In this document: piece by piece, positions 5,357 through 51,377 of the stretch
Numbering within the stretch: the stretch's first letter is position 1
Layout: each line of letters starts with the position of its first letter
NCBI RefSeq assembly: GCF_058153355.1
Contig: NZ_CM177019.1
Length of the DNA stretch: 64,000 bases
Strand: one strand, 5' to 3'
Notes under the pieces: model-generated
Told to the model about the DNA's origin: nothing
The model's input: only the letters and a program-made list of their open reading frames with translations
Databases searched by the model: none
Position numbers and translations under genes: made by a program

Positions 5357-5965
5357 TCAAGCCTTTGGCGGTTCGGTGCGGGCAAAACTTTCGCGGCTAA
5401 ACAGGTTTTCGACCAGTTTGACTAAGTGTGGGCGGTCGACACACCAGCCTGGCGCAACGCGGCGGAAATTGAGATATCCGACGGCACAGGCAATGGCGAT
5501 AGTCGCCAGATTGACCGTATCGGTTTTGAGCGTGCCATCGACCAGATATCCTTCCAGCACATCCAGACTGCGGTTGATTTTCTCCCGCTGGCGTAATAAT
5601 TCATCTTCAGACTGCTGCGGCGCCGGACGTGCCTGTTCACGCACCGACACCAGCCCGGCATCCATAATGCCATCCGCCAGCGCCTCAATTTTGCGCACCC
5701 GCAACGACTCCAGCGGATCGCGCGGCAACATCGCCGGAGCGACATTCATTAATTCAATATATTCAGCGATGATCGGCGAATCAAACCAACATTCGCCCTC
5801 TTCGGTCACCAGCACCGGCACTTTCCCTAACGGGTTAAATTGCGCCACGCCGTTGTCTGCGTTATAGGGCAGTTCATTAATAAATTCGAAAGTTATGCCC
5901 TTTTCTAACAACAGAATAGAAAGTTTGCGTACAAACGGGCTGGTGTAGCTACCGACGAGTTTCAT
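5357..5965 (-). CDS. yibF: glutathione S-transferase family protein YibF
   Basis: 202-aa ORF with GST N-terminal thioredoxin-like fold signature (SPFVRK...GKVPVL); conserved neighbour of selA. Confidence 0.9.
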
Positions 5966-6180
5966 GCCGAGTCCTTTGTGCGAGGAAAAATATCAGTATG
6001 GCCTGGTGATGGGAAAAAGGGCAGAAAATGTTGATGGTTTGTTACTTCCCAATAAATCACATATTTATCATGGTGATATAAATATTTTCCTAATTGTTCT
6101 TATCTGACAGATATCTCACTTAAGGCTTTCTTATAAATCTGTAGGGTTTGCACCATGAGTGCGGTAGCTATGAGGTTTAT

Positions 6181-8493
6181 ATGTCCTCAGAAGGATTACG
6201 TTTCACGCTGTCGGTGGCCGGTATCGTGGAGATGGCGACGGCGGTGGTGAGCTTCCGTCTGTACCAGCACCACTGCACGCCGTTCATCCTGGATGTGGAT
6301 ATCGCCAGCGGGCTGCCCGACCTGACGGCGGAGGATTTTCTGGAGAAGAGCGCGGTGCTGACGGTCTGGCAGGGTGATATCCCGCAGCGTTACGTCAGCG
6401 GTATCGTGACGGAGGTGCAGCTCGGTGAGAACAACGACTGGCAGATGCGTTATTCCCTGAGCATCAGCCCGCCGCTGTGGCGGGCAGGGTTACGGCAGAA
6501 CTTCCGTATCTTCCAGCAGCAGGACATTCAGACGATATCAGCACAGCTTCTGAGAGAGAACGGGGTGACGGCGTGGATGCCGCTGTTCTATGAGGCGCAC
6601 CCGGCGCGGGAGTTCTGCGTGCAGTACGGGGAGAGCGACCTGGCATTCCTGACCCGGCTGTGGGCGGAGGAAGGTATCTTCTTTTATGAGCGCTGCGGTC
6701 AGGAAGGGCCGGAGCAGAAGCTGGCGGTGTGTGATGACGTGGCGGGGCTGACGGGAATGGGGGCGCTGGCGTTTAACCCGAATACCACGACCGGGGGAAC
6801 GACGGAGTACATCAGTGAGTTTCGTTACCGTGCGCAGATAAGCGTGGCGTCGGTGGAGACGCAGGATTATACGTTCAAAACGCCGGGGTGGCCGGGGTAC
6901 TACAGCCATGACGGGGAGAGCCTGAACGGGCAGGGAACGCAGTACGAGATATTTGATTATCCGGGGCGTTTCAAGGATGAGCAGCATGGCCAGGATTTTG
7001 CGCGTTACCAGACGGAAGGGTGGCGGAACGGGGCGGAGACGGCGAGCGGGGTGTGTAACACGGCGCGGCTGTGGCCGGGAACGCGGTTCCGGCTGACGGG
7101 CCATCCCTCAGAGACGCTGAACCGGGAATGGCAGGTTGTGGGAAGCACACTGCGGGGAGAACAGCCGCAGGCGCTGCACGGGAGTCACGGTGAAGGGACG
7201 ACACTGAGCAATCAGTTTGAGGTGATACCGGCAGACAGGACGTGGCGTCACGCGCCGCTGCCGAAGCCGAAGGTGGACGGCCCGCAGAGTGCCATCGTGA
7301 CCGGGCCGAAGGGTGAGGAGATATTCTGCGACGAGCATGGCCGGGTACGGGTGAAGTTTCACTGGGACCGTTATCACGGGATGACGGAGGAGAGTTCGTG
7401 CTGGATACGGGTGTCGCAGGCATGGGCGGGACCGGGGTTCGGCAATCTGGCGATACCGCGTGTGGGTCAGGAAGTGATAGTGGACTTTCTGAACGGCGAC
7501 CCGGACCAGCCCATTGTGACGGGGCGGACCTACCATGAAGATAACCGTTCACCGGGGGATTTACCGGGCACGCGGACGCAGATGACCATCCGCTCGAAGA
7601 CCTATAAAGGAAGCGGCTTTAATGAACTGCGTTTCGAGGATGCGACGGACAGTGAGCAGGTGTATATCCACGCGCAGAAGAACATGGACACGGAGGTGCT
7701 TAACGACCGGACGACGGACGTGAAGCATGACCATACGGAGACCATCGGTAACGACCAGAAGATAAGGGTGGTGAAGGGGCAGACGGTTGAGGTCGGCACC
7801 AGAAAAGAAGGGGGTCACGACCAGAGTATCACGGTGGCGAACGACCGGCGCATAACGGTACGTAATGACCAGACGCTGAAGGTGACGAATGACCGGACGG
7901 TGAGCGTGAGTCACGATGACGGCCTGTATGTCAGAAACGACCGTAAAGTGACGGTGGAAGGGAAGCAGGAGCATAAGACGACGGGGAACCATATCAGCCT
8001 GGTGGAGGGAAAGCACAGTCTGGAGGTGAAGGGCGACCTGGCGGAGAAGGTGAGTGGCGCGCTGGGGATCAAGGTGGACGGGGATATCGTGCTGGAGAGC
8101 AGCAGCCGGATAAGCCTGAAAGTGGGCGGCTCGTTCGTGGTGATACACTCTGGCGGTGTGGATATTGCGGGGCCGAAGATAAACCTCAACGGGGGAGGCA
8201 GTCCGGGGACGCCAGTACAGACGTTACAACCGGTGGTACTGGAGGCGCTGGAGGATGAGAATGATGATGAGAACCCTGAAAAATATACTCTCCAGTTCCA
8301 TTTTACAGACGATGACGGGATACCGTATTCAGAGACACGCTACATTGCCTTCTTTGAGGACGGCACGCAGACGCGAGGGGAGACGGATGAAAATGGGTAT
8401 ACGGAAACATTCTCCACTGACAGCGAGCAGACAATCGAAGTCAGATTGTTGCATTTGAATATCGATATGATATGGGGAGGGATTAATGAATAG
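6181..8493 (+). CDS. vgrG: T6SS spike protein VgrG (copy 1) with C-terminal transthyretin-like extension
   Basis: N-terminus MSSEGLRFTLSV... typical of VgrG; GAGG RBS 5 nt upstream of the ATG at 6181 (the track ORF start at 6148 is an in-frame upstream ATG); gp27/gp5-like repeats; about 90 aa extension after the PKINLNGGGSPGTP end of the conserved core. Confidence 0.9.
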   Translation: MSSEGLRFTLSVAGIVEMATAVVSFRLYQHHCTPFILDVDIASGLPDLTAEDFLEKSAVLTVWQGDIPQRYVSGIVTEVQLGENNDWQMRYSLSISPPLWRAGLRQNFRIFQQQDIQTISAQLLRENGVTAWMPLFYEAHPAREFCVQYGESDLAFLTRLWAEEGIFFYERCGQEGPEQKLAVCDDVAGLTGMGALAFNPNTTTGGTTEYISEFRYRAQISVASVETQDYTFKTPGWPGYYSHDGESLNGQGTQYEIFDYPGRFKDEQHGQDFARYQTEGWRNGAETASGVCNTARLWPGTRFRLTGHPSETLNREWQVVGSTLRGEQPQALHGSHGEGTTLSNQFEVIPADRTWRHAPLPKPKVDGPQSAIVTGPKGEEIFCDEHGRVRVKFHWDRYHGMTEESSCWIRVSQAWAGPGFGNLAIPRVGQEVIVDFLNGDPDQPIVTGRTYHEDNRSPGDLPGTRTQMTIRSKTYKGSGFNELRFEDATDSEQVYIHAQKNMDTEVLNDRTTDVKHDHTETIGNDQKIRVVKGQTVEVGTRKEGGHDQSITVANDRRITVRNDQTLKVTNDRTVSVSHDDGLYVRNDRKVTVEGKQEHKTTGNHISLVEGKHSLEVKGDLAEKVSGALGIKVDGDIVLESSSRISLKVGGSFVVIHSGGVDIAGPKINLNGGGSPGTPVQTLQPVVLEALEDENDDENPEKYTLQFHFTDDDGIPYSETRYIAFFEDGTQTRGETDENGYTETFSTDSEQTIEVRLLHLNIDMIWGGINE

Positions 8494-10510: not shown

Positions 10511-12712
10511 ATGTCATTAAAAGGGCTGCGCTTTACGCTGACGGTGGACGGACTGGTGCCGGAGACGTTTGCGGTGGTGGATTTCCGCCTCACGCAGGCA
10601 TACTCATCGCCGTTCGTCCTGGATGTGGACGTTGCCAGCGACTCGTTCCGCCAGACGGCGGAGAAGCTGCTGGAGAAGGGGGCCGTACTGACCATCTGGC
10701 AGGGTGGCACGGCGCTGCGTTATGTGAGCGGTGTGGTGTCGGGGTTCGGCATGAAGGAGCACAACGGCTGGCAGATGCAGTACCACCTTCAGATACGTCC
10801 GCCCCTGTGGCGCAGCGGGCTGCGCCAGAACTACCGAATCTTCCAGCAGCAGGACATTCAGGCCATCTCCGCCACGCTGTTAAACGAGGACGGAGTGACG
10901 CAGTGGACGCCGCGCTTTTATGAGAGCCACCCGGCACGGGAGTTCTGCGTCCAGTACGGTGAAAGCGACATGGCGTTTCTGACCCGGCTGTGGGCGGGGG
11001 AAGGCATCTTCTTTTATGACAGATACGCTGACGACAGCCCGGAGCAGACGCTCACGCTGTGCGATGATGTGGCGGGCCTGCCGGTGTACGGGGAGATACC
11101 GTTTAACCCGAACACCCGTGAGGTGACGACGGCGTGCATCAGCCTGTTCCGCTACCAGGCGCAGGTGCGGCCCTCGCAGGTGCGTTCAAAAGACCACACG
11201 TTTAAGGTGCCGGACTGGCCGGGTATTTACATTGAGGATGCTGAAAACCTCAACGGGCAACTGAAGCAGTACAAAATCCTGGACTGGCCGGGGCGCTACA
11301 AGGACGAGCAGCATGGTCAGGACTTTACCCGCTACCGGCTGGAAGGGCTGCGTAACAGTGCTGAAACCGCCACAGGTATCAGTAACTCCCCGGCGCTGTG
11401 GCCGGGACGGCGGTTCACCTTGACGGGGCATCCGGTACAGGGAGCGAACCCGAACCGTGAGTGGCAGGTGGTGAGCAGCACGCTGACGGGGAGCCAGCCG
11501 CAGGCGCTGCACGGGAGTCACGGTGAAGGGACGACACTGAGCAATCAGTTTGAGGTGATACCGGCAGACAGGACGTGGCGTCACGCGCCGCTGCCGAAGC
11601 CGAAGGTGGACGGCCCGCAGAGTGCCATCGTGACCGGGCCGAAGGGTGAGGAGATATTCTGCGACGAGCATGGCCGGGTACGGGTGAAGTTTCACTGGGA
11701 CCGTTATCACGGGATGACGGAGGAGAGTTCGTGCTGGATACGGGTGTCGCAGGCATGGGCGGGACCGGGGTTCGGCAATCTGGCGATACCGCGTGTGGGT
11801 CAGGAAGTGATAGTGGACTTTCTGAACGGCGACCCGGACCAGCCCATTGTGACGGGGCGGACCTACCATGAAGATAACCGTTCACCGGGGGATTTACCGG
11901 GCACGCGGACGCAGATGACCATCCGCTCGAAGACCTATAAAGGAAGCGGCTTTAATGAACTGCGTTTCGAGGATGCGACGGACAGTGAGCAGGTGTATAT
12001 CCACGCGCAGAAGAACATGGACACGGAGGTGCTTAACGACCGGACGACGGACGTGAAGCATGACCATACGGAGACCATCGGTAACGACCAGAAGATAAGG
12101 GTGGTGAAGGGGCAGACGGTTGAGGTCGGCACCAGAAAAGAAGGGGGTCACGACCAGAGTATCACGGTGGCGAACGACCGGCGCATAACGGTACGTAATG
12201 ACCAGACGCTGAAGGTGACGAATGACCGGACGGTGAGCGTGAGTCACGATGACGGCCTGTATGTCAGAAACGACCGTAAAGTGACGGTGGAAGGGAAGCA
12301 GGAGCATAAGACGACGGGGAACCATATCAGCCTGGTGGAGGGAAAGCACAGTCTGGAGGTGAAGGGCGACCTGGCGAGGAAGATTACCGGTGCGCTGGGA
12401 ATGAAGGTCCGGAATGAAATCGTACTGGAGAGTGGCGGTAAAATCACCCTAAAGGTGGGTGGTTCGTTTGTGGTCATCCATTCAGGGGGCGTGGACATCG
12501 TCGGGCCGAAAATCAATCTCAATAGCGGCGGTAGTCCGGGAACGCCGGTGCCGACGCTACGACCGGCGGTTTTGAAAGCGCTGGCAGATTATGACAATGG
12601 CGGACCTGGAACTGAAGGGGCGGAGCCACCACGGAAAAGTGTACAGGAAGCCTTTGATCCTCCCCAGCAGGATAAGGTACCGCCACAACGGCCGGGAAGA
12701 TTCTCACGATAA
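10511..12712 (+). CDS. vgrG: T6SS spike protein VgrG (copy 2) with short Pro-rich C-terminal tail
   Basis: 733-aa ORF, N-terminus MSLKGLRFTLTVDGL...; central about 0.88 kb is nucleotide-identical to vgrG1; GGAGG RBS upstream. Confidence 0.92.
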   Translation: MSLKGLRFTLTVDGLVPETFAVVDFRLTQAYSSPFVLDVDVASDSFRQTAEKLLEKGAVLTIWQGGTALRYVSGVVSGFGMKEHNGWQMQYHLQIRPPLWRSGLRQNYRIFQQQDIQAISATLLNEDGVTQWTPRFYESHPAREFCVQYGESDMAFLTRLWAGEGIFFYDRYADDSPEQTLTLCDDVAGLPVYGEIPFNPNTREVTTACISLFRYQAQVRPSQVRSKDHTFKVPDWPGIYIEDAENLNGQLKQYKILDWPGRYKDEQHGQDFTRYRLEGLRNSAETATGISNSPALWPGRRFTLTGHPVQGANPNREWQVVSSTLTGSQPQALHGSHGEGTTLSNQFEVIPADRTWRHAPLPKPKVDGPQSAIVTGPKGEEIFCDEHGRVRVKFHWDRYHGMTEESSCWIRVSQAWAGPGFGNLAIPRVGQEVIVDFLNGDPDQPIVTGRTYHEDNRSPGDLPGTRTQMTIRSKTYKGSGFNELRFEDATDSEQVYIHAQKNMDTEVLNDRTTDVKHDHTETIGNDQKIRVVKGQTVEVGTRKEGGHDQSITVANDRRITVRNDQTLKVTNDRTVSVSHDDGLYVRNDRKVTVEGKQEHKTTGNHISLVEGKHSLEVKGDLARKITGALGMKVRNEIVLESGGKITLKVGGSFVVIHSGGVDIVGPKINLNSGGSPGTPVPTLRPAVLKALADYDNGGPGTEGAEPPRKSVQEAFDPPQQDKVPPQRPGRFSR

Positions 12713-12721
12713 GGACTGAAC

Positions 12722-15211
12722 ATGAAAATCAGCCATCCCATCAGGGATAAAGAAGGCAAAGAGTTTCGCTCACTGGATGAGATAATGCGGCTTATTGACA
12801 AAGAAGCGCACGGAACCTGGCTGCTGGGTGGAAACGGGCTGTGGCACGGCGGGATACATATCAGTGACGTGTCTAATCCGTTATCAGCCCTGAAACCGGA
12901 TACCGCCGCTACCGGAGAACCGGTTCCTCTTCAGTTTATGGCCGATGGCACCATTGCGGCGTACCGGATAAATAATGATTACCTGAAAGGCCCCTACAAA
13001 GGGCAGCAACTCCGTTACAGCAGCACATTTGTTCTGGTGAAATCGCAGTGCCAGCCAGACCCGCAAAAAAAAGAAAGCTGGCTGGAATTTTACTGTCTCT
13101 ATATGCATCTGGCCCCGGTGAACGATTATCCCGGCTCCCCCTGCTATAAAGTTAAAACCGGGCATGGTGGCATATTGCTGCACCGATACATCCCGGGAAA
13201 GAACGGCCTTCCCGAGGGGCAGGAAAGCGGAGATCATGCCACGTACTGGATACCCCCGAAAATCAGCGGAAACAGGACACTTAATGCGGGAGATCGGTTT
13301 GTGTCATCCCGGACCGGACGTTTTTACGTGACCAATAACGGCCAGCCGGTCCTGACGACATTCGGACTGGTTCGCCTGCTGGAAGGCAATAAACCGGGGA
13401 ATGAGCAGTACTGGGTGACCCTGGATCCGGATCTGATGGAGTCAGATGGCGAAATACAGATGCTGATGCCTGAGTGGATGCAGAAGGCGAAGGCAAAAGG
13501 CATTTTTGACTCGGTACAGACGGTCGACGAAACGGAAGAGTGGAAAGTCAGTGCCGGAACACCGGTCGGATTTATGGGATGCGAGGATTATCCTGGCGAG
13601 GGAAGCGGTGAGATTGAGCGCGAGTGGTTCGTCCATCTGGAGGTTCTGAGTACAGACCCGAATATGCCAAAGTTCTTATCCAACCCGGCAGGCGTTAAGG
13701 GAGAAAAACGGACTGTTCTGGCACCAAAAGGGATAATTTTATACACCCGGCAGGCCGTTCCGGGACAGGAGGTATTTACCGCAACCGCAGCCACGCTGGG
13801 TGCTCAGCGCGTTCTTCCGCGGGAAGCCACGACACCAGTCACGGATGAATCGCAGCAGTGGTGGTTTAATATCACCGGAACCGGCTGGCTGCCACAAAAG
13901 GATGTTGAAGAGGCCGGACAGTATGATTTACTGAAGCTGGGTTTTCAACCGCTGGAGGAGAACAGCAGCGGTGACATGACGTACAGCCCGTACGAAGGAT
14001 GGGTGCCGGAAGCGTTTGACTCAATAAGCCGTGCCGCAGAACAGGGAGATGAGTGGCTGTATGAGCAGGTACCGCCCTTTTATCGTGAGCTGATGGCGGG
14101 TATGGATCAGGACGGTGATGGAAAAGTGACGGAGGAAGAGATCAGACAGGCGCTGATCGTGCGTGAACCACTGGTGAGAAATGTGGTGAATCATCTGATA
14201 GTTAAACACCACAGCGAATGGTACGGAGGGCGCTCGACAGGGCGGTGGGAAGGATTTTATAAAGATCTGGATACAGAGGAAGTGGCATACTGTGAGAAGT
14301 GGCAGCTGGATCTGGAGTGGATGAGCGGGGTATCTCCGTTTAATAGTGATGATGCTGTGTGGCATTTTCATCCGGTTGTGTTTTTGGACGCTATTAATTC
14401 CAAATCTGTGTGTGCTTGCAACAGAGATATAACATTAGATGAATTAAAAAAAGTTGCTCCTGCAGTAAGTGAAGGTCTTCTCAAAAGGTACCTCTACGAT
14501 ATAAATGCAGGGTTTATTCGGTTTGGTATGACCACTTGTAGAGAAAAAGCCCATTTTCTTGCTCAAATTATTCACGAGAGCGGTTATTTTAGATATACCA
14601 AAGAAATTAATGGTGAATCAGCTTCATATAGTCCGTGGTATGGCCGAGGCTTAATACAAGTTACAGGCGAAAGTAATTACACCGCCTATGGGGAATATAT
14701 CAATGAGGACGTAACATCTTCAGATTCCGCAAGAGATAAACTCATATCCTCCCCACATTGCGTATTATCTGCGTTTTGGTATTTCAATATATTCAAAAGA
14801 ATAAATGAAGATGCTAAAAATGATGATTTTAATAAAATTACAGTAGTGATTAATGGAGGGTATAATCATTATGATGAACGGTTGTCGATATTTAATAAAT
14901 TGGTTACCTCACTTGCTGCCGAGCATTTAAATCAGAAAGAAATGAACGACGATTTCTTGTTTGATGATAGTGACGTATATGATAATAAAGTATATGCTTT
15001 GGGATGGGGGATATGGCATGATCCTGATAGCTCCCGAAGAGGGACGATCAAGAGTAACGAAGAAGCATTAAAAGGTTATAGAAGGGCGAAAGAATTAATT
15101 GACCTGCATCCGTTTCCTCAGGAAGGGCGTGAGGGTGATAGAAAAGTATATGGAATAGAAAAAAGGAATATATCCACATTTGTAGAGAGACGAATAACTG
15201 AACTGGAGTAA
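12722..15211 (+). CDS. modular T6SS effector candidate: unknown N-terminal domain, EF-hand, C-terminal GH19 (chitinase/lysozyme-like) peptidoglycan hydrolase domain
   Basis: 829-aa ORF 9 nt after the vgrG2 stop; canonical EF-hand loop DQDGDGKVTEEE; C-terminal motifs AHFLAQIIHESG and YGRGLIQVTGESNY match GH19-family catalytic signatures; the C-terminal third is AT-rich compared with the N-terminal part. Confidence 0.75.
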   Translation: MKISHPIRDKEGKEFRSLDEIMRLIDKEAHGTWLLGGNGLWHGGIHISDVSNPLSALKPDTAATGEPVPLQFMADGTIAAYRINNDYLKGPYKGQQLRYSSTFVLVKSQCQPDPQKKESWLEFYCLYMHLAPVNDYPGSPCYKVKTGHGGILLHRYIPGKNGLPEGQESGDHATYWIPPKISGNRTLNAGDRFVSSRTGRFYVTNNGQPVLTTFGLVRLLEGNKPGNEQYWVTLDPDLMESDGEIQMLMPEWMQKAKAKGIFDSVQTVDETEEWKVSAGTPVGFMGCEDYPGEGSGEIEREWFVHLEVLSTDPNMPKFLSNPAGVKGEKRTVLAPKGIILYTRQAVPGQEVFTATAATLGAQRVLPREATTPVTDESQQWWFNITGTGWLPQKDVEEAGQYDLLKLGFQPLEENSSGDMTYSPYEGWVPEAFDSISRAAEQGDEWLYEQVPPFYRELMAGMDQDGDGKVTEEEIRQALIVREPLVRNVVNHLIVKHHSEWYGGRSTGRWEGFYKDLDTEEVAYCEKWQLDLEWMSGVSPFNSDDAVWHFHPVVFLDAINSKSVCACNRDITLDELKKVAPAVSEGLLKRYLYDINAGFIRFGMTTCREKAHFLAQIIHESGYFRYTKEINGESASYSPWYGRGLIQVTGESNYTAYGEYINEDVTSSDSARDKLISSPHCVLSAFWYFNIFKRINEDAKNDDFNKITVVINGGYNHYDERLSIFNKLVTSLAAEHLNQKEMNDDFLFDDSDVYDNKVYALGWGIWHDPDSSRRGTIKSNEEALKGYRRAKELIDLHPFPQEGREGDRKVYGIEKRNISTFVERRITELE

Positions 15212-15216
15212 TTGAT

Positions 15217-15627
15217 ATGAAAGTTAATTTATTGGTTTTACTGTTTTGTTTGGTGCCTTGTTGTTTATTGGCTAAACAACAAACAACGGTAGGCTGTTTT
15301 AGCGCTGGGAAAACAAATTTAAAGTTTGTTGAAATATCGTCTGGCGATATTTTTTTAGGTTATGTGATTTATGAGAAATCCTCAAAATTTATACCTCTTG
15401 CGTTTATAAATAAATTAGAAGTGACTTTCGATGACAGGCCTTCTGAATTTTCTTATGCATGGAGCGAGGTTGTAAATGGAAAAATTAATGGGTTGTATGT
15501 TGTTTCCACACAAGGTGCAAGATTTAATTTGTTTCATTATAAATCAATAAGTGGGAAAACAACTGAGTTTGAAGAAAATATTGAGGCATATAATGATGAT
15601 GGTACTGATTGCAAATGGACTGGATGA
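15217..15627 (+). CDS. putative periplasmic immunity protein for the GH19-type effector
   Basis: 136-aa ORF starting 6 nt after the effector stop; N-terminal signal peptide MKVNLLVLLFCLVPCCLLA; AT-rich like the toxin domain. Confidence 0.6.
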   Translation: MKVNLLVLLFCLVPCCLLAKQQTTVGCFSAGKTNLKFVEISSGDIFLGYVIYEKSSKFIPLAFINKLEVTFDDRPSEFSYAWSEVVNGKINGLYVVSTQGARFNLFHYKSISGKTTEFEENIEAYNDDGTDCKWTG

Positions 15628-15789
15628 CCATTGTGCAGTTTTTTATGAAATCGATGCTGTGTTATTAAAATAATAATGCGACTAGGTTGAATTTGTTTAT
15701 TATTAATTTAAATGTTTTATGATTTTAAGTTAGACATGAATAACTGACTGGAAAATTATTTTTGAGGGATATCGTACAGGCAGGCAGGG

Positions 15790-17070
15790 AAAGATCACGT
15801 AACGCTGCTTTTTTGTACTATACAATTCGCATTTTATGTTTGAAAATTGAGATATTCCTCATTACCTGAAGCTGTTTTTTATTGCTTATACATGATCAAA
15901 TACTCCTTACATAATTAAGGAGAACAAAATGGTACTTAAAAAATTGATGGAACATATTTCTATTATCCCCGATTACAGACAAGCCTGGAAAGTGGAACAT
16001 AAATTATCGGATATTCTACTGTTGACTATTTGCGCCGTTATTTCGGGTGCAGAAGGCTGGGAAGATATAGAGGATTTTGGGGAAACACATCTCGATTTTT
16101 TGAAGCAATATGGTGATTTTGAAAATGGTATTCCTGTTCACGATACCATTGTCAGAGTTGTATCCTGTATCAGTCCTGCAAAATTTCACGAGTGCTTTAT
16201 TAACTGGATGCGTGACTGCCATTCTTCAGATGATAAAGGCGTCATTGCAATTGATGGAAAAACGCTCCGGCACTCTTATGACAAGAGTCGCCGCAGGGGA
16301 GCGATTCATGTCATTAGTGCGTTCTCAACAATGCACAGTCTGGTCATCGGACAGATCAAGACGGATGAGAAATCCAATGAGATTACAGCTATCCCAGAAC
16401 TTCTTAACATGCTGGATATTAAAGGAAAAATCATCACAACTGATGCGATGGGTTGCCAGAAAGATATTGCAGAGAAGATACAAAAACAGGGAGGTGATTA
16501 TTTATTCGCGGTAAAAGGAAACCAGGGGCGGCTAAATAAAGCCTTTGAGGAAAAATTTCCGCTGAAAGAATTAAATAATCCAGATCATGACAGTTAAGCG
16601 ATTAGTGAAAAGAGTCACGGCAGAGAAAAAATCCGTCTTCATATTGTTTGCGATGTCCCTGATGAACTTATTGATTTCACGTTTGAATGGAAAGGTCTGA
16701 AGAAATTATGCGTGGCAGTCTCCTTTCGGTTAATAATAGCAGAACAAAAGAAAGAGCCAGAAATGACGGTCAGATATTATATCAGTTCTGCTGATTTAAC
16801 CGCAGAGAAGTTCGCCACAGCAATCCGAAACCACTGGCACGTGGAGAATAAGCTGCACTGGCGTCTGGACGTGGTAATGAATGAAGACGACTGCAAAATA
16901 AGAAGAGGAAACGCCGCAGAATTATTTTCAGGGATACGGCACATCGCTATTAATATTTTAACGAATGATAAGGTATTCAAGGCAGGGTTAAGACGTAAGA
17001 TGCGAAAAGCAGCCATGGACAGAAACTATCTCGCGTCAGTCCTTGCGGGGAGCGGGCTTTCGTAATCTTG
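15790..17070 (+). mobile_element. H-repeat (H-rpt) element, ISAs1 family, nearly full length
   Basis: Encodes the H-repeat-associated transposase-like protein; its 5' end, including about 140 bp upstream of the ATG, recurs at 19865-20290 and in degenerate form at 21975-22635; element boundaries are approximate. Confidence 0.75.
15929..17065 (+). pseudogene. ISAs1-family (H-repeat-associated) transposase, interrupted by a single in-frame TAA
   Basis: ORFs 15929-16597 and 16712-17065 are in the same frame (669 and 114 nt offsets are multiples of 3) and separated only by TAA at 16598-16600; combined length about 378 codons, the size of intact H-rpt proteins. Confidence 0.75.
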
Positions 17071-17075
17071 CCCTG

Positions 17076-19492
17076 GAGGTGATACCGGCGGACAGGACGT
17101 GGCGTCACGCGCCCCTGCCGAAGCCGAAGGTGGACGGCCCGCAGAGTGCCATCGTGACCGGGCCGAAGGGCGAGGAGATATTCTGCGACGAGCATGGCCG
17201 GGTACGGGTGAAGTTTCACTGGGACCGTTATCACGGGATGACGGAGGAGAGTTCATGCTGGATACGGGCGTCGCAGGCATGGGCGGGACCGGGGTTCGGC
17301 AATCTGGCGATACCGCGTGTGGGTCAGGAAGTGATAGTGGACTTTCTGAACGGCGACCCGGACCAGCCCATTGTGACGGGGCGGACATACCATGAGGACA
17401 ACCGTTCACCGGGGGATTTACCGGGCACGCGGACGCAGATGACCATCCGCTCGAAGACCTATAAAGGAAGCGGCTTTAATGAACTGCGTTTCGAGGATGC
17501 GACGGACAGTGAGCAGGTGTATATCCACGCGCAGAAGAACATGGACACGGAGGTGCTTAACGACCGGACGACGGACGTGAAGCATGACCATACGGAGACC
17601 ATCGGTAACGACCAGAAGATAAGGGTGGTGAAGGGGCAGACGGTTGAGGTCGGCACCAGAAAAGAAGGGGGTCACGACCAGAGTATCACGGTGGCGAACG
17701 ACCGGCGCATAACGGTACGTAATGACCAGACGCTGAAGGTGACGAATGACCGGACGGTGAGCGTGAGTCACGATGACGGCCTGTATGTCAGAAACGACCG
17801 TAAAGTGACGGTGGAAGGGAAGCAGGAGCATAAGACGACGGGGAACCATATCAGTCTGGTGGAGGGAACGCACAGTCTGGAGGTGAAGGGCGACCTGGCG
17901 AGGAAGATTACCGGTGCGCTGGGAATGAAGGTCCGGGATGAAATCGTACTGGAGAGTGGTGGTAAAATCACCCTGAAGTGGGTGGCTCGTTTGTGGTCGT
18001 TCATTCTGGTGGTGTGGATATTGTCGGACCGAAAATAAATCTGAATTGCGGGCGCAGTCCGGGGACGCCGATAAATACACTACAACCGGCAGTTATGGAC
18101 GCTCTGGCTGACGAGCAGTATGACAGAGGGAATGCTGGCGGCGGGAATGACGGAGAGCCTAGTGATGAGGATGAATCAGAAGGTGGAGAAGAAGACAAGG
18201 ACGATTCAGATGAACTGGTAATTCCTGTATACGCAAAATCTTGTCTGAAGGAGAAAGGCTGCACTGATGCTGGTACGACCATGGAGCCATCGAAACATTT
18301 TGGTGATATGGCTCTATTTGCCCAGCCAGTGGAGGATGACTGTTGCGGCTATGGTACACACTATCATGACGATGAAGTGGAGCAACTTGCGCAGTCAGCA
18401 AAAAAAACCTCAGGAGCGAACTCACTGACGGGGGAAATGACAGTTGCGTCAGCGGGTGTTGCGGTTCCACTAGCGGCGGAACAGTCTGCGGGAGTTTTAA
18501 CTCGCGTATGGGGAACATTAGGGGCATGGGGTGGAGAAGGTTTTTTAAGTGTATCAAAAACGGTGCCAGCCCTTGGTGTCCTAGTATCAGCACTATATCC
18601 AATACCTGCCGGTGAAGGTAGTGATAAAGTTCCTGGACGGGATGAACAGTGGCTCGAAAATGAGCTACGTCGTAAAGCGCAATCTGGAGAGACGGCAGCT
18701 ACGCGGGCGCGCTTTCTCTTTCAGCGGAATACTGCTGGTGAATTGAGGACATACGGATACCACACACCCGCAGGTTCGGAACTTGAAGGTGTTCGGGTAG
18801 CATTGATGGAGTGGAATAAGGAATTTTCCCGTTATGAATTTTCACCTGTGTCTGATTCGGGACCAAAAATATTTTGGACGCCTGCAAAGCCAGAAGGTTC
18901 AGAGCAGCCCATACACACCGGAACTCCTGTCGAACCAGTTGATCTACCTGATATTTATGTTAATCCGATACCCGATGAAAAAACAGATATCACCACGCCG
19001 CCTTCTCCAATGCCGGAGGAGCGAAATTTTAATGACTGGATACTTGTCTTTCCTGACGGTGCGGAATTAACACCAATATATGTGTATCTGAAAACTGCAA
19101 GGGATGTAGCGGGAACAGTAACAGGTAAGGGGGAGGTGTTAGCAGGTACAGGAAGATGGCTGTCGCAGGCGGGGAAAAGCTTAGGAGTGCCAATTCCACA
19201 ACAGGTCGCAAATAAACTTCGGAGTAAGTCATTTAACAATTTTGATGAATTCATGGCAGCTTTCTGGACTGCTGTAGGTGAATGTCCAGAACTATTGAGC
19301 CAATTTAATAAAGCTAACCAAACGTTGATAAAGCGTGGACGCGCACCTTATACTATATCAAGACAAAGAGTTGGGGGGCGAGGTACATTTGAAATTCATC
19401 ATATTGACGAAATCCAATATGGGGGAGAAGTCTATGATATTGATAATCTTAGAGTAAACACACCTAAAAACCACATACGATTGCATAAATAA
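17076..19492 (+). pseudogene. 5'-truncated, frameshifted vgrG (copy 3) fused to colicin E9-like HNH DNase toxin domain
   Basis: vgrG homology begins abruptly at about 17076, right after the H-rpt end, so the N-terminal half is missing; a 1-nt deletion near 17977 (ctgaagtgggtgg here, ctaaaggtgggtgg in vgrG2) splits the reading frame; C-terminal domain ...GRGTFEIHHIDEIQYGGEVYDIDNLRVNTPKNHIRLHK matches the colicin E9/E7 DNase HNH motif. Confidence 0.8.
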
Positions 19493-19505
19493 AAAGGAGG
19501 TAGTA

Positions 19506-19778
19506 ATGGAGTTTAAAAATAATCTAGAAGATTATACGGAAGATGAATTTATCGAACTTCTAAATAATTTTTTTGAACCACCTGAGGAATTGCATGGCGA
19601 TAAGTTGTCGAAGTTTATTGATGATCTTGTAAGTCATTTTATTAGAATCACTCAGCACCCAGATGGTAGTGATTTGATATTCTATCCATCTGAAGATAGA
19701 GAAGATAGTCCCCAAGGGATTGTTGATGAGTTAAAACGATGGCGAGCATCGCAGGGGCTAGGATGCTTTAAAATATAA
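19506..19778 (+). CDS. colicin DNase-type immunity protein (Im9/Im7-like)
   Basis: 90-aa ORF 14 nt after the DNase stop with GGAGG RBS; MEFKNNLEDYTEDEFIELL...HPDGSDLIFYP...DSPQGIV...RWRASQG aligns with the Im9 family (DYTE.EF, HP.GSDLI.YP, DSP.GIV). Confidence 0.85.
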   Translation: MEFKNNLEDYTEDEFIELLNNFFEPPEELHGDKLSKFIDDLVSHFIRITQHPDGSDLIFYPSEDREDSPQGIVDELKRWRASQGLGCFKI

Positions 19779-19864
19779 TGAAAATAAATACTCATCATAT
19801 TTTATTAAAATGATTGGTGTTTTTGTTATTAACCTTAAACCACTTCCTGAGAAGGTGGTACAGG

Positions 19865-20295
19865 GAAAGATCACCAGAAGTACACTTTTTGTACTAAATA
19901 ATTCGCATTTTATGTTCAATAATTGAGATATTCCTCATTACCTGAGGCTGTTTTTTATTGCTTATACATGATCAAATACTCCTTACATAATTAAGGAGAA
20001 CAAAATGGAACTTAAAAAATTGATGGAACATATTTCTGTTATTCCTGATTACAGACAAGCCTGGAAAGTGGAACATAAATTGTCGGATATTCTACTTTTG
20101 ACTATTTGCTCCGTCATTTCTGGTACAGAAGGCTGGCAAGATATAGAGAATTTTGGGGAAACACATCTCGATTTTTTGAAGCGACATGGTGATTTTTGAA
20201 ATGGTATTCCTGTTCACATACCATTGCCAGAGTTGTATCCTGTATCAGCCCTGCAAAATTTCATGAGTGCTTTATTAAAAGGAAACCAGGGGCGG
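19865..20295 (+). mobile_element. H-repeat 5' fragment (includes truncated 64-codon transposase ORF 20005-20199)
   Basis: Near-identical to 15790-16210 of the full H-rpt; the ORF ends prematurely (GDF then stop); joined through a short internal H-rpt piece (GNQGRL) to effector-derived sequence. Confidence 0.75.
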
Positions 20296-21465
20296 CTTAA
20301 TATCACCGGAACCGGCTGGCTGCCACAAAAGGATGTTGAAGAGGCCGGACAGTATGATTTACTGAAGCTGGGTTTTCAACCGCTGGAGGAGAACAGCAGC
20401 GGTGACATGACGTACAGCCCGTACGAAGGATGGGTGCCGGAAGCGTTTGACTCAATAAGCCGTGCCGCAGAACAGGGAGATGAGTGGCTGTATGAGCAGG
20501 TACCGCCCTTTTATCGTGAGCTGATGGCGGGTATGGATCAGGACGGTGATGGAAAAGTGACGGAGGAAGAGATCAGACAGGCGCTGACCGTGCGTGAACC
20601 ACTGGTGAGAAATGTGGTGAATCGTCTGACAGTCAGACACCACAGCGAGTGGTACGGCGGTCGCTCGACGGGACGCTGGGAAGGGTTTTATAAAGATCTG
20701 GACACCGAGGAAGTGGCATACTGTGAAAAGTGGCAGCTGGATCTGGAGTGGATGAGCGGGGTGTCTCCGTTTAATAGTGATGATGCTGTGTGGCATTTTC
20801 ATCCGGTTGTGTTTTTGAATGCTATTAATAATAGCAATTACCCAAAAACTCCTGTGAATAATGAACTTATTCCATTGGAATTTTTACGATTTTATAACGG
20901 AGATACCATTGATGATGCAGACTATGAAAATGCTGCAAGGACACTACAATGCGAAGTGGCTGCAATTAAAGCTGTTGCAAAAACTGAAACTGGTAGTTCC
21001 GGTAGCTATTTTAAATTTGAACAAGAAGATGATTACGTCCCCTCAATTCTTTTTGAAAGACATCATTTCCATCGATATACGAATGGTGTGTATGATTCTC
21101 AACCTGATATTTCCAACAGCCGTTCTGGCGGTTATGGAACACGATCGGAGCAATATCAAAAATTACTTCGTGCATATGTTTTAGATAAGCAAGCTGCGCT
21201 TAAATCGGCATCGTGGGGTAAATTTCAGATATTGGCTTCAAATTACCAAGCTACCGGGTACTCTTCGCCCGAAGAGTTTATAATATCGATTTCAGAGTTA
21301 GAGAAAAACCATCTGGCGGCATTCATTAACTTCATAAAATCTAATCCTGTATTATTGCGTGCTATTAGAGATAAAGATTGGCTTAACTTTGCTCTATGTT
21401 ATAATGGGCAAAGTCAGCGAGGATATGATGACAGAATAAGGGCTAATTATGAGCAATATAGATAG
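20224..21465 (+). CDS. orphan, N-terminally truncated effector module: conserved EF-hand middle region plus alternative C-terminal N-acetylmuramidase (DUF3380-like) domain
   Basis: Residues from NITGTGWLPQKDVEEAG through HPVVFL are about 95% identical at nucleotide level to 13865-14395 of the 829-aa effector, then diverge into a C-terminus with ILFERHHFHRYT, SWGKFQILASNY and LCYNGQSQ motifs typical of the DUF3380 muramidase family; the first 20 codons derive from H-rpt sequence in another frame. Confidence 0.7.
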   Translation: MPELYPVSALQNFMSALLKGNQGRLNITGTGWLPQKDVEEAGQYDLLKLGFQPLEENSSGDMTYSPYEGWVPEAFDSISRAAEQGDEWLYEQVPPFYRELMAGMDQDGDGKVTEEEIRQALTVREPLVRNVVNRLTVRHHSEWYGGRSTGRWEGFYKDLDTEEVAYCEKWQLDLEWMSGVSPFNSDDAVWHFHPVVFLNAINNSNYPKTPVNNELIPLEFLRFYNGDTIDDADYENAARTLQCEVAAIKAVAKTETGSSGSYFKFEQEDDYVPSILFERHHFHRYTNGVYDSQPDISNSRSGGYGTRSEQYQKLLRAYVLDKQAALKSASWGKFQILASNYQATGYSSPEEFIISISELEKNHLAAFINFIKSNPVLLRAIRDKDWLNFALCYNGQSQRGYDDRIRANYEQYR

Positions 21466-21898
21466 AGCATTAATTTTTATTTTTTTATCTGGAATTCCCT
21501 GGACTCTACACGCAGGAAATAATTATTTTTTATGTAATACATCCAAAGGAACTTTGTCATTAACAAGTTTTGGTGAAACGTTGATTTATGAAATGAATAG
21601 TCAGCATGGGAATAAATTTCAATTCATTTCAGATGGACCAATGTATTCAGGATTTTTTTATAATCATTACTCCAGATTTCAAACGGATTACTTTAGCGTT
21701 AGTTTTATTCAAAGTGGATATAAGTACTCCGTGTTTAGCAATTACGACAACGGTAGTAACATGCGAGGGGTTAGTGTCATTGATATGAAAACAAAAAAAG
21801 AATACGTTTATAATTGCAAAGATTATAAAGTGGACAGGCTTTATAATCTGAAAAAAAAGCTTAAATGTGATATTAATAATGTACTAAGTTGTCAGTAA
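21449..21898 (+). CDS. putative periplasmic immunity protein for the orphan muramidase domain
   Basis: 149-aa ORF overlapping the toxin stop by 17 nt; N-terminal signal peptide (MSNIDRALIFIFLSGIPWTLHA); AT-rich. Confidence 0.55.
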   Translation: MSNIDRALIFIFLSGIPWTLHAGNNYFLCNTSKGTLSLTSFGETLIYEMNSQHGNKFQFISDGPMYSGFFYNHYSRFQTDYFSVSFIQSGYKYSVFSNYDNGSNMRGVSVIDMKTKKEYVYNCKDYKVDRLYNLKKKLKCDINNVLSCQ

Positions 21899-21904
21899 AT
21901 TGTA

Positions 21905-22640
21905 TCTTACAACGTTCGGGCGGTACGATTTACTGAAGCTGGCTTTTCATAGGCTGGAGGAAAACAGCAAGGGTAATAAAGGTAAAGACCATATAACGCC
22001 GATTTTTTGCACTAAACAATTAGCACTAAATGTCCAATAATCAAGATATCCCTTATTATTTAATAAGTGTTTTCATAGCTTATATATATTCAGACACTCC
22101 TTACATAAACAAGGAGAAAAAATGGAACTTAAAAAATTAATGGAGCATATTTCTACTGTCCCGATTACAGACAAGTCTGGAAAGTAGAGTATAAATTATC
22201 AGATATCCTAGTGCTGATTATTTTCGCCATCCTTTCCGGAGCTGAAGGATGGGAAGATATAGAGGATTCTGGTGAGACTCATCTCGATTTGTTGAAGCAA
22301 TATGGTGATTTTTAATATGGTATTCCTATTCACGATATCATTGCCAGAGTTGTGTCCTGTATCAGTCCTGGAAAATTTCACGAGTTCTTTATTAGCTGGA
22401 TGTGTGACTGTCATTCTTCAGATAATAAAACCATCATCGCAATAGATGGAAAAGCACTCCAGCACTTTTTTGATTAGCATCGTCGCAGAGGAACAATTCA
22501 TAATCATTGCGATCTCGACGATGTATAGTCTGATCCTGCGGCAGAACAAGACGGATAAAAAATCTAATGAGAGCACACTCATCAAGAACTTCTCAACCTA
22601 ATGAATATTAAAGAAAAATCATCGCAGCCAATGAAGTAAT
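21905..22640 (+). mobile_element. degenerate third module remnant: effector middle-region fragment plus decayed H-repeat 5' portion
   Basis: 21920-21975 resembles the effector YDLLKLGFQPLEENS coding sequence; 22124-22635 is a diverged H-rpt 5' part with several in-frame stops. Confidence 0.6.
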
Positions 22641-22697: not shown

Positions 22698-23834
22698 TCA
22701 ATGATCCAAATAAAGATAATGCATCCAACTGGTCATTCTTAGCAGCACTTTCCGCATCACCGAAACATGGCTGAAATGGTCGGAGTAAACCGCCACCTGG
22801 GCGTAGATACCGTCGGGTAAGGCATCAATATCAGCGTTAGGGTCCAGTTCGATGGTTCCCAGCACACCGTCCGTGCCGGGCACGACGGTTAATGATTGCA
22901 GTACCCCTTGCGCCTGATACGAACCACCAGGCACCACCGGCAAGATGCTGGTCAGTTTGCCGTGGAATACCTGCCCAGGTAGCGCGTTAAACACCACTTC
23001 CGCATCATCGCCGGGTTTCAGACGTAACAGCGAGTTCTGCCGAAATTGGGCGACAATTTGCCGTTTTTGCTCGGGGATGAAAACCATCACCGGACGTAGC
23101 GGCAAGGCAGCTGCGTATGTACCTGGGCGGATCAGTACCTGAGTAACGTAGCCATTGCTTGGTGCGCGAATGACAGTCTGCTCAAGGTTATATTTTGCTT
23201 CGGTAAGTTGCGCTCTTAAGCTCACAATCTGCGATTGCTCGCCGTTAACCATACTGTCGAGCTGACTCTGGATCTGCGCCTGCTCCGCCACCGAGCCTTT
23301 CACCAGCGCGTCCTGCGCGAGGAAGTTTTGCCGCGCATCGTCGATGTCACGTTCCGAGAACGGATTCACTGCCGCCTGGCTGCCTTTCAGGTAACGTTGA
23401 TAATTTTTAAACAAGCGGTCACGCTCCGCTGAAACCTGGGTGGTGTTGGCCTGCGCTTCAGTGAGCTGCGCGCGCAGCGTCTTTATATTATGCGTCGCCG
23501 TCATCAGGTCAGCCTGAAGCCTGTCAACTCGCACCTGGTAACGAACCGGGTCGAGTTTAAAAAGCACCTCGCCCTTTTGAATAAGCTGATTATTCTTGTC
23601 AGTGACTTCAGTAACAATTCCCGTCACCTGTGGCGTGATGGGGATCGCTATCACTGCCTTTTGCGCGGTAAAAGTGTAAGGGTGGTTGTAGTTCATCAAC
23701 AAAATCAAACCACTCACCAGAAACACGCCTCCCAGCGCCGCCGTCGCCAGCGTCCACTGATTTACCGGAATGCGGAAGATTTTAAAGACCGCCCACGCCA
23801 GCGCCACGTAAGTTAAAACAATCAATAGATCCAT
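22698..23834 (-). CDS. yibH: HlyD-family membrane fusion / inner membrane protein YibH
   Basis: 378-aa ORF with N-terminal TM helix, coiled-coil middle and beta-barrel C-terminus typical of HlyD/EmrA-like proteins. Confidence 0.85.

Positions 23835-50173: not shown

Positions 50174-51377
<1,204 letters not shown>

Follow-up and report, generated by a model that had tools for sequence, protein, structure and literature searches.

Modules that join a Pyocin_S domain to an HNH DNase are widespread on VgrG, Hcp and PAAR carriers of type VI secretion systems (T6SSs) (PMC9602870; PMC9040868). One such protein, SARI_02603 (VgrG-NucSe1), has been known since 2009 (PMC2907695): its VgrG part carries a pyocin/HNH extension, an immunity gene lies downstream, and the protein has proved antibacterial in experiments (PMC12992299). 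Pyocin_S is an inner-membrane translocation domain required for the import of pyocin G, and it is present in 97.6% of T6SS effectors that have a colicin DNase domain (PMC9040868). Hcp-ET3/4 and orphan immunity genes have been reported in Escherichia coli (PMC6730261), and a model of effector displacement and orphan immunity has been put forward for the T6SS immunity arrays of Vibrio cholerae (PMC5361080). Here we analyse a 64-kb chromosomal stretch of E. coli type (contig NZ_CM177019.1; hereafter the window) in which the third of three vgrG copies, vgrG3, carries a C-terminal colicin-type DNase and is followed by an immunity gene. Relatives were drawn from 5426 complete E. coli genomes plus a large assembly collection. 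We consider it very probable that vgrG3 is a displaced and dead specialised VgrG effector, that is, an orphan effector/immunity cassette whose immunity gene most likely still protects. Since VgrG-pyocin DNase fusions are already known, the view of the initial annotation that such a fusion is remarkable in itself was overstated; what is new is this decayed copy, a breakpoint that falls at its frameshift, and a 4.1-kb unit that lies between H-rpt left ends. The value of the locus is mainly one of annotation, and it illustrates clearly how, at the rhs loci of E. coli, vgrG islands gather displaced effector tips with their immunity genes kept.

The cassette opens with a vgrG3 fragment that has neither the N-terminal half of the protein (codons 1-346 of the intact allele are gone) nor a start codon (Table 1). 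Of the 513 positions of the VgrG model TIGR03361 it covers only 337-513, so that it falls short of a complete VgrG core, which is present in the intact alleles of the related loci L001 (NZ_CP169399.1) and L006; the fragment is 98% identical to these two loci and to L008 (AP025747.1). Homology to vgrG begins immediately after the right end of H-rpt copy A, ...TCGTAATCTTGCCCTG, which is common to other ISEc1 copies, and the right end ...CGTAATCTTGCCCTG of the same copy is also present in the related loci L003 and L004. At 17977/17978 the window has CTGAA-GTGGG in place of the CTGAAGGTGGG of 12 related loci; one G of a GG run is missing, which bears out the single-nucleotide deletion placed near 17977 by the initial annotation. 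The deletion breaks the fusion of the toxin to the VgrG C-terminus, which is in frame in 9 related loci. Its broken frame and incomplete core make the window copy a pseudogene that descends from the specialised VgrG family, not a functional member of it. The fragment is a mosaic: between 17876 and 17977 it shows 0-3 mismatches per 50 nucleotides to vgrG2 and 8-19 to the DNase allele, whereas from 17978 onward it shows 0-2 to the DNase allele and 9-17 to vgrG2. The deletion thus sits on the breakpoint of a gene conversion whose tract was copied from the vgrG2 of the island, and for this reason it probably arose during recombination between vgrG copies and not as an unrelated decay mutation. Programmed frameshifting at 17977 was considered and rejected, since the intact alleles differ simply by an additional G and the fragment lacks a start codon.

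Downstream of the deletion, the toxin ORF (open reading frame) retains a complete tip. Its last 135 residues align with residues 3-132 of the colicin E9 DNase (E=5.5e-38), and residue by residue all of R5, D51, R96, E100, H102, H103, N118, H127 and H131 of E9 are conserved, so the colicin E9/E7-like DNase proposed earlier is well founded. Directly upstream of the nuclease lies a full-length Pyocin_S domain, which was missing from the earlier description. This is preceded by a Cys-rich motif (VYAKSCLKEKGCTDAG...DDCCGYG) and a Gly/Ala/Val-rich hydrophobic stretch (18200-18620), both kept in VgrG-, Hcp- and PAAR-fused relatives of several genera, and these two elements may be part of the translocation region. 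The immunity gene starts with an ATG 14 nucleotides (nt) after the toxin stop codon. Its product matches Im7 (E=4e-25), with full-length matches to Im7, Im2, Im9 and Im8 ranging from E=1e-19 to 4e-25, in agreement with the initial description of an intact, Im9-like protein.

An intact vgrG-DNase allele, which the initial annotation had proposed to look for in related genomes, is present in other E. coli. The DNase module is carried by four of the 5426 complete genomes, and in E. coli MFDS1022581 it forms part of a single continuous ORF of 1151 codons that begins with the VgrG start and ends in ...RLHK. Searched as an exact sequence, the immunity protein was found in 152 blocks of the large assembly collection. 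Among the 10 long contigs listed with the identical immunity protein, an intact 1151-aa gene precedes it in eight, all of them at the kdp-ybfA locus and all with the domains Phage_GPD, Phage_base_V, Gp5, Pyocin_S and Col-Pyo_DNase; two further loci that also have this immunity protein have been disrupted differently, the one through an internal rearrangement and the other through insertion of an insertion sequence (IS). Intact genes that are paired elsewhere with the very same immunity protein indicate that the live toxin circulates in E. coli, and sequence identity and gene order suggest that the immunity protein of the window is the partner of that toxin. The kdp-ybfA allele (CP169399.1, AP025747.1) has 98-99.5% nucleotide identity to the window over 17076-19800, and it is followed by the same H-rpt remnant and truncated effector. 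It differs in that it encodes 1151 aa in frame at another chromosomal locus, whereas the window copy is without codons 1-346, has one nucleotide fewer and bears four private amino acid changes and a tract of vgrG2 sequence. Outside E. coli, the best relatives reach no more than 57% identity, and VgrG-NucSe1 is a different allele, absent among the close relatives listed. This particular allele is uncommon, while the type of system is well established.

In the ancestor of the cassette, a 1151-aa specialised VgrG would have joined a spike and linker to Pyocin_S and a colicin E9-type HNH DNase, followed by an Im-type immunity gene. The T6SS spike would carry the DNase into a neighbouring cell, where Pyocin_S is presumed to help it cross the inner membrane and the HNH domain would degrade the target DNA; the immunity protein would shield the producer. 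We infer these steps of delivery, translocation, DNA cleavage and protection from homology and from the tested relative VgrG-NucSe1 (PMC12992299). The resemblance to that relative is close: VgrG-NucSe1 of the T6SS on Salmonella pathogenicity island 21 (SPI-21) in Salmonella enterica subsp. arizonae is, like the intact allele, a VgrG with C-terminal S-type pyocin and HNH DNase regions, directly followed by the gene of its immunity protein, SARI_02602, and the island also has an M23/EF-hand/endolysin effector (SARI_02625; PMC12992299) that the 829-aa effector of the window resembles. However, the VgrG-NucSe1 gene is intact and lies in a T6SS core cluster, whereas the window copy is a truncated and frameshifted orphan in a vgrG island at an rhs locus.

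Colicins E9 and E7 with Im9 and Im7, and pyocins S2 and AP41, are clear homologues of the DNase and the immunity protein, with the HNH residues conserved. In the pyocins, Pyocin_S lies upstream of the nuclease, as it does in the toxin ORF, and the immunity gene follows directly 3' of the toxin. Colicins and pyocins rely on receptor-binding and Tol/Ton translocation domains, whereas the intact allele instead uses the T6SS spike, and the genes of the window and of the intact allele are chromosomal whereas the colicin counterparts are plasmid-borne. Neither an SOS-regulated operon nor a lysis gene was noticed, though no search was aimed at them. The same tip, composed of the Cys-rich segment, Pyocin_S and the HNH DNase, is also found in Hcp-ET3/ET4 (Usp-like) and in PAAR- and MIX-linked effectors (e.g. 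VPA1263), likewise with cognate or duplicated immunity genes, but there the carrier is Hcp, PAAR or MIX instead of VgrG and identity is 35-53%.

The boundaries of the cassette point to its mobility between rhs-type loci. The transposase ORF of H-rpt copy A (15929-17065; 1137 nt, full length) has an in-frame stop at codon 223 (16595-16597), where the translation of the intact 378-aa ISEc1 transposase has Y223, and the element beside the cassette is therefore itself inactive. A direct repeat of 419 nt of the H-rpt left end brackets the cassette, with the left copy at 15785-16203 and the H-rpt remnant at 19861-20278 as the right copy. In E. coli MFDS1022581, the island at the rhsA position is 98% collinear with the window but lacks a 4.1-kb unit, namely the remainder of H-rpt together with the vgrG3 fragment, DNase and immunity gene; this presence/absence polymorphism could reflect either insertion or deletion via recombination between H-rpt copies. 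Moreover, positions 17076-20816 are 98% collinear with the array at the ybfA locus of AP025747.1, where the H-rpt remnant and truncated effector are present as well; the segment from the 3' half of vgrG through the DNase and immunity gene to the H-rpt remnant therefore travels as a whole between rhs-type loci. One compared locus shows the same arrangement, with a 5'-truncated rhs core immediately behind H-rpt. The initial annotation had held that the 5' half of vgrG3 was lost at the H-rpt junction. The junction lies where it was placed, but a simple loss is improbable, and the fragment probably represents a displaced cassette attached to H-rpt.

Orphan Rhs-CT/immunity modules and the orphan immunity arrays of V. 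cholerae share the same traits: a 5'-truncated core downstream of an active gene, a kept immunity gene and a flanking H-rpt/ISAs1 element (PMC5361080). In the window, a 5'-truncated core that is homologous to an upstream full-length gene has kept its own toxin tip and immunity gene, H-rpt/ISAs1 lies at the boundary, and the unit is absent from the collinear island of MFDS1022581. The architecture is that of orphan Rhs tips and fits the effector-displacement model. The two differ in that the orphan Rhs modules have an Rhs core, whereas the window cassette has a VgrG core and a frameshift at the end of the homology, which would block simple recombinational reactivation.

As a delivered weapon the toxin is dead, because codons 1-346, the start codon and the promoter context are missing (the fragment begins at the H-rpt/ISAs1 right end), one nucleotide is deleted and four private amino acid changes have accumulated; the toxin ORF is probably untranslated. 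The function that most likely remains is immunity against conspecific attackers. With its untouched reading frame, a strong ribosome-binding site and a promoter-like site, the immunity gene most likely shields the cell from E. coli that carry the live toxin. The promoter-like site is the best of the region; it falls inside the last part of the DNase coding sequence and precedes the immunity gene by 150 nt. In colicin E operons, the promoter of the immunity gene is located inside the colicin gene, which would correspond to this position. Because E. coli strains with the live toxin are in circulation, maintenance of the immunity gene for protection against kin is plausible, and this orphan gene could shape which strains coexist.

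Several points weigh against this interpretation. The candidate promoter is a consensus match only, selective retention of the immunity gene is no more than plausible, and the cassette may simply be young. The window says nothing about a T6SS core cluster or about a second, intact copy of the toxin in the genome. Finally, the junction and the frameshift are seen in no independent assembly, and a base-calling error at the single G is possible; however, truncation at H-rpt alone inactivates the gene, so that the toxin would be dead even if the missing G were an error.

It is possible, though we think it unlikely, that the cassette is neutral wreckage, a by-product of recent recombination in which the immunity gene is intact for lack of time and brings no selected benefit. 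The degree of divergence favours this reading. When compared with nine other alleles, the toxin ORF of the window has seven private substitutions, four of them non-synonymous (G24C, G26R, E377V and R426M) and three synonymous. G24C and G26R fall in the linker part (aa 1-230), E377V and R426M are listed with the DNase region, and R426 aligns with R54 of E9, an immunity-contact position that is alanine in chain 2vlp_B of the alignment. Divergence from the intact alleles is about 0.5%, and these differ from each other by 0-1 nt over 1515 nt. The immunity gene has no private substitution where about 1.3 would be expected at the rate of the toxin, but the probability of finding none is about 0.28, which is not significant and hence no evidence of selection on the immunity gene. 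A contrast between relaxed selection on the toxin and purifying selection on the immunity gene was also considered and set aside, the counts (4+3 versus 0) being too small. That the flanking H-rpt copies are decayed as well is in keeping with wreckage. On the other hand, many E. coli assemblies hold the live toxin with the identical immunity protein (the exact immunity protein alone is recorded in 152 blocks), so that a benefit from the immunity gene is available, its translation signals are intact, and retention of orphan immunity genes recurs in T6SS loci (PMC5361080; PMC6730261).

Perhaps the cassette instead serves as a silent store for effector switching, whereby homologous recombination with vgrG1 or vgrG2 would create a new live VgrG-DNase, as for orphan Rhs tips. 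We regard this as improbable, even though the vgrG copies clearly exchange sequence. The fragment lies downstream of the vgrG2-effector-immunity unit and is 93-96% identical to vgrG1 and vgrG2 over about 1040 nt. The tract converted from vgrG2 is the sign of this exchange. The DNase catalytic residues and Pyocin_S are all intact, and the activation of orphan Rhs modules by recombination provides a precedent (PMC5361080). Reactivation is hindered, however, by the position of the frameshift at the 3' edge of the shared homology: a crossover anywhere within the 900 nt of shared core would keep the frameshift, and 3' of it only about 70-110 nt at about 80% identity are left. The four private amino acid changes, including R426M at the immunity-contact position, further argue against a tip held in reserve. 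There is an even smaller chance that the cassette belongs to a functioning system through which the three vgrG copies of the island exchange sequence. The vgrG2 conversion tract would then be a trace of ongoing transfer, further conversion or a +1 slip could place the catalytically intact Pyocin_S-DNase tip on vgrG1 or vgrG2, and the frameshift, lying where the homology ends, would lock the silent toxin against uncontrolled expression; if true, orphan switching as known for Rhs would also apply to VgrG-fused effectors.

We likewise give little credence to the idea that the deletion is a sequencing or assembly error and that the vgrG3-DNase frame is continuous from 17076. When metagenome contigs and species-representative genomes were scanned for exact DNA matches, neither the frameshift site nor the H-rpt/vgrG3 junction turned up, and the DNase module was found at this locus, or with this deletion, in none of the 5426 complete E. 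coli genomes. In favour of an error, no independent assembly was found to carry the frameshift, and the deletion concerns a single G of a GG run. A GG dinucleotide is no typical error-prone homopolymer, though, and the site coincides with a real mosaic breakpoint. Even a restored frame would still start at codon 347 beside the H-rpt end, with no start codon, and the toxin would still be undeliverable.

That 17978-19492 is translated (from its beginning or from the ATG at 18095 or 18281) as a stand-alone Pyocin_S-DNase, either as a cargo effector or as an addiction module with the immunity gene, is very improbable: its 504 open codons, intact catalytic residues and the many "S-type pyocin domain-containing proteins" of about 440-490 aa in databases favour it, but none of the candidate starts examined (GTG 17978, ATG 18095, ATG 18281) is preceded by a Shine-Dalgarno sequence, the Pyocin_S-HNH part of a related effector is not secreted on its own (PMC9602870), and the database proteins look like split annotations. 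No exact protein match to the toxin ORF was obtained, whichever of three possible starts was taken. The database proteins begin within sequence that is continuous with VgrG in relatives (P0001/P0004 versus P0056, P0037). Likewise, at NZ_CP169399.1 (L001:6963-10418) and other RefSeq matches, RefSeq/PGAP annotates the continuous ORF of 1151 codons in two pieces, a tssI pseudogene ("missing C-terminus") and a 403-aa "S-type pyocin domain-containing protein" (WP_249822543.1), next to the immunity protein WP_000394623.1. Stand-alone pyocin proteins of this kind are thus probably annotation artefacts, and annotation-based surveys under-count specialised VgrGs.

Table 1. Features of the vgrG island and of the orphan cassette within the window.
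Feature	Position	Strand	Remarks
yibF	5357-5965	minus	left border of the vgrG island
vgrG1	6148-8493		first vgrG of the island
Two ORFs, 303 and 307 aa	8511-10355		between vgrG1 and vgrG2
vgrG2	10511-12712		second vgrG of the island
829-aa effector gene	12722-15211		EF-hand and weak GH19 match
136-aa putative immunity gene	15217-15627		3' of the 829-aa effector gene
H-rpt/ISAs1 (ISEc1-like) copy A	15785-17075	+	right end abuts vgrG3
vgrG3 fragment	17076-17977	+	codons 347-647 of the intact 1151-aa allele (gp5-like/DUF2345 part of the VgrG core)
1-nt (G) deletion site	17977-17978	+	from alignments; breaks the vgrG frame
Toxin ORF	17978-19492	+	504 codons, opens at the deletion site
VgrG core end, acidic linker, Cys-rich conserved segment, Gly-rich hydrophobic segment	17978-18667	+	aa 1-230
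Pyocin_S domain	18668-19087	+	PF06958, 2-139/139, E=7.6e-32, aa 231-370
Colicin/pyocin HNH DNase domain and stop codon	19112-19492	+	PF21431 Col-Pyo_DNase, 1-124/124, E=4e-49, aa 379-504
Sigma-70-like promoter match	19325-19354	+	TTGATA-18-TATACT, consensus match at 10/12 positions
Shine-Dalgarno sequence of the immunity gene	19494-19500	+	AAGGAGG, read in the sequence
Immunity gene, 90 aa, intact	19506-19778	+	PF01320 Colicin_Pyocin, 1-82/82, E=1.7e-32
H-rpt remnant copy B	19861-20278	+	left end and about 270 nt of transposase gene, internal deletion
Truncated effector, N-acetylmuramidase tip	20224-21465		fused to H-rpt remnant copy B
149-aa ORF	21449-21898		after the truncated effector
yibH	22698-23834	minus	right border of the vgrG island

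The vgrG island lies between yibF and yibH, which is the position of rhsA in K-12, and the genes aldB-yiaY-selAB-yibF in the first 6 kb of the window match E. coli genomes at 98-98.6%. The C-terminal extension of vgrG1 is unlike that of the DNase allele. The 303- and 307-aa ORFs behind it have no match in NCBIfam; their annotation in related E. coli islands is hypothetical or, in one strain, M35 metalloendopeptidase. Presumably they are a cargo effector of vgrG1 and its partner. The 829-aa protein is a putative VgrG2-linked effector with an EF-hand match (E=9e-4) and a faint match to GH19 chitinase/lysozyme, and the neighbouring 136-aa ORF has a signal peptide; NCBIfam has no family for this effector or for the neighbouring immunity ORFs.

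Positions 20224-21898 hold a second orphan cassette. Its truncated effector repeats 13856-14398 of the 829-aa effector gene, with the EF-hand and a differing tip, an N-acetylmuramidase (PF11860, E=3.7e-44), and at the point of fusion with the H-rpt remnant the transposase peptide KGNQGRLN is reused. The 149-aa ORF that follows has a signal-peptide-like N-terminus and is likely the immunity gene of this effector. A third, heavily decayed H-rpt remnant at 22200-22600 adjoins yibH; in MFDS1022581 this segment corresponds to an annotated partial ISAs1 transposase, and an IS21-family element additionally splits yibH there. Elsewhere in the window, two 326-aa ORFs (35882-36862 and 50397-51377), each with a 184-aa ORF of equal length on the opposite strand, are probably two copies of one IS.

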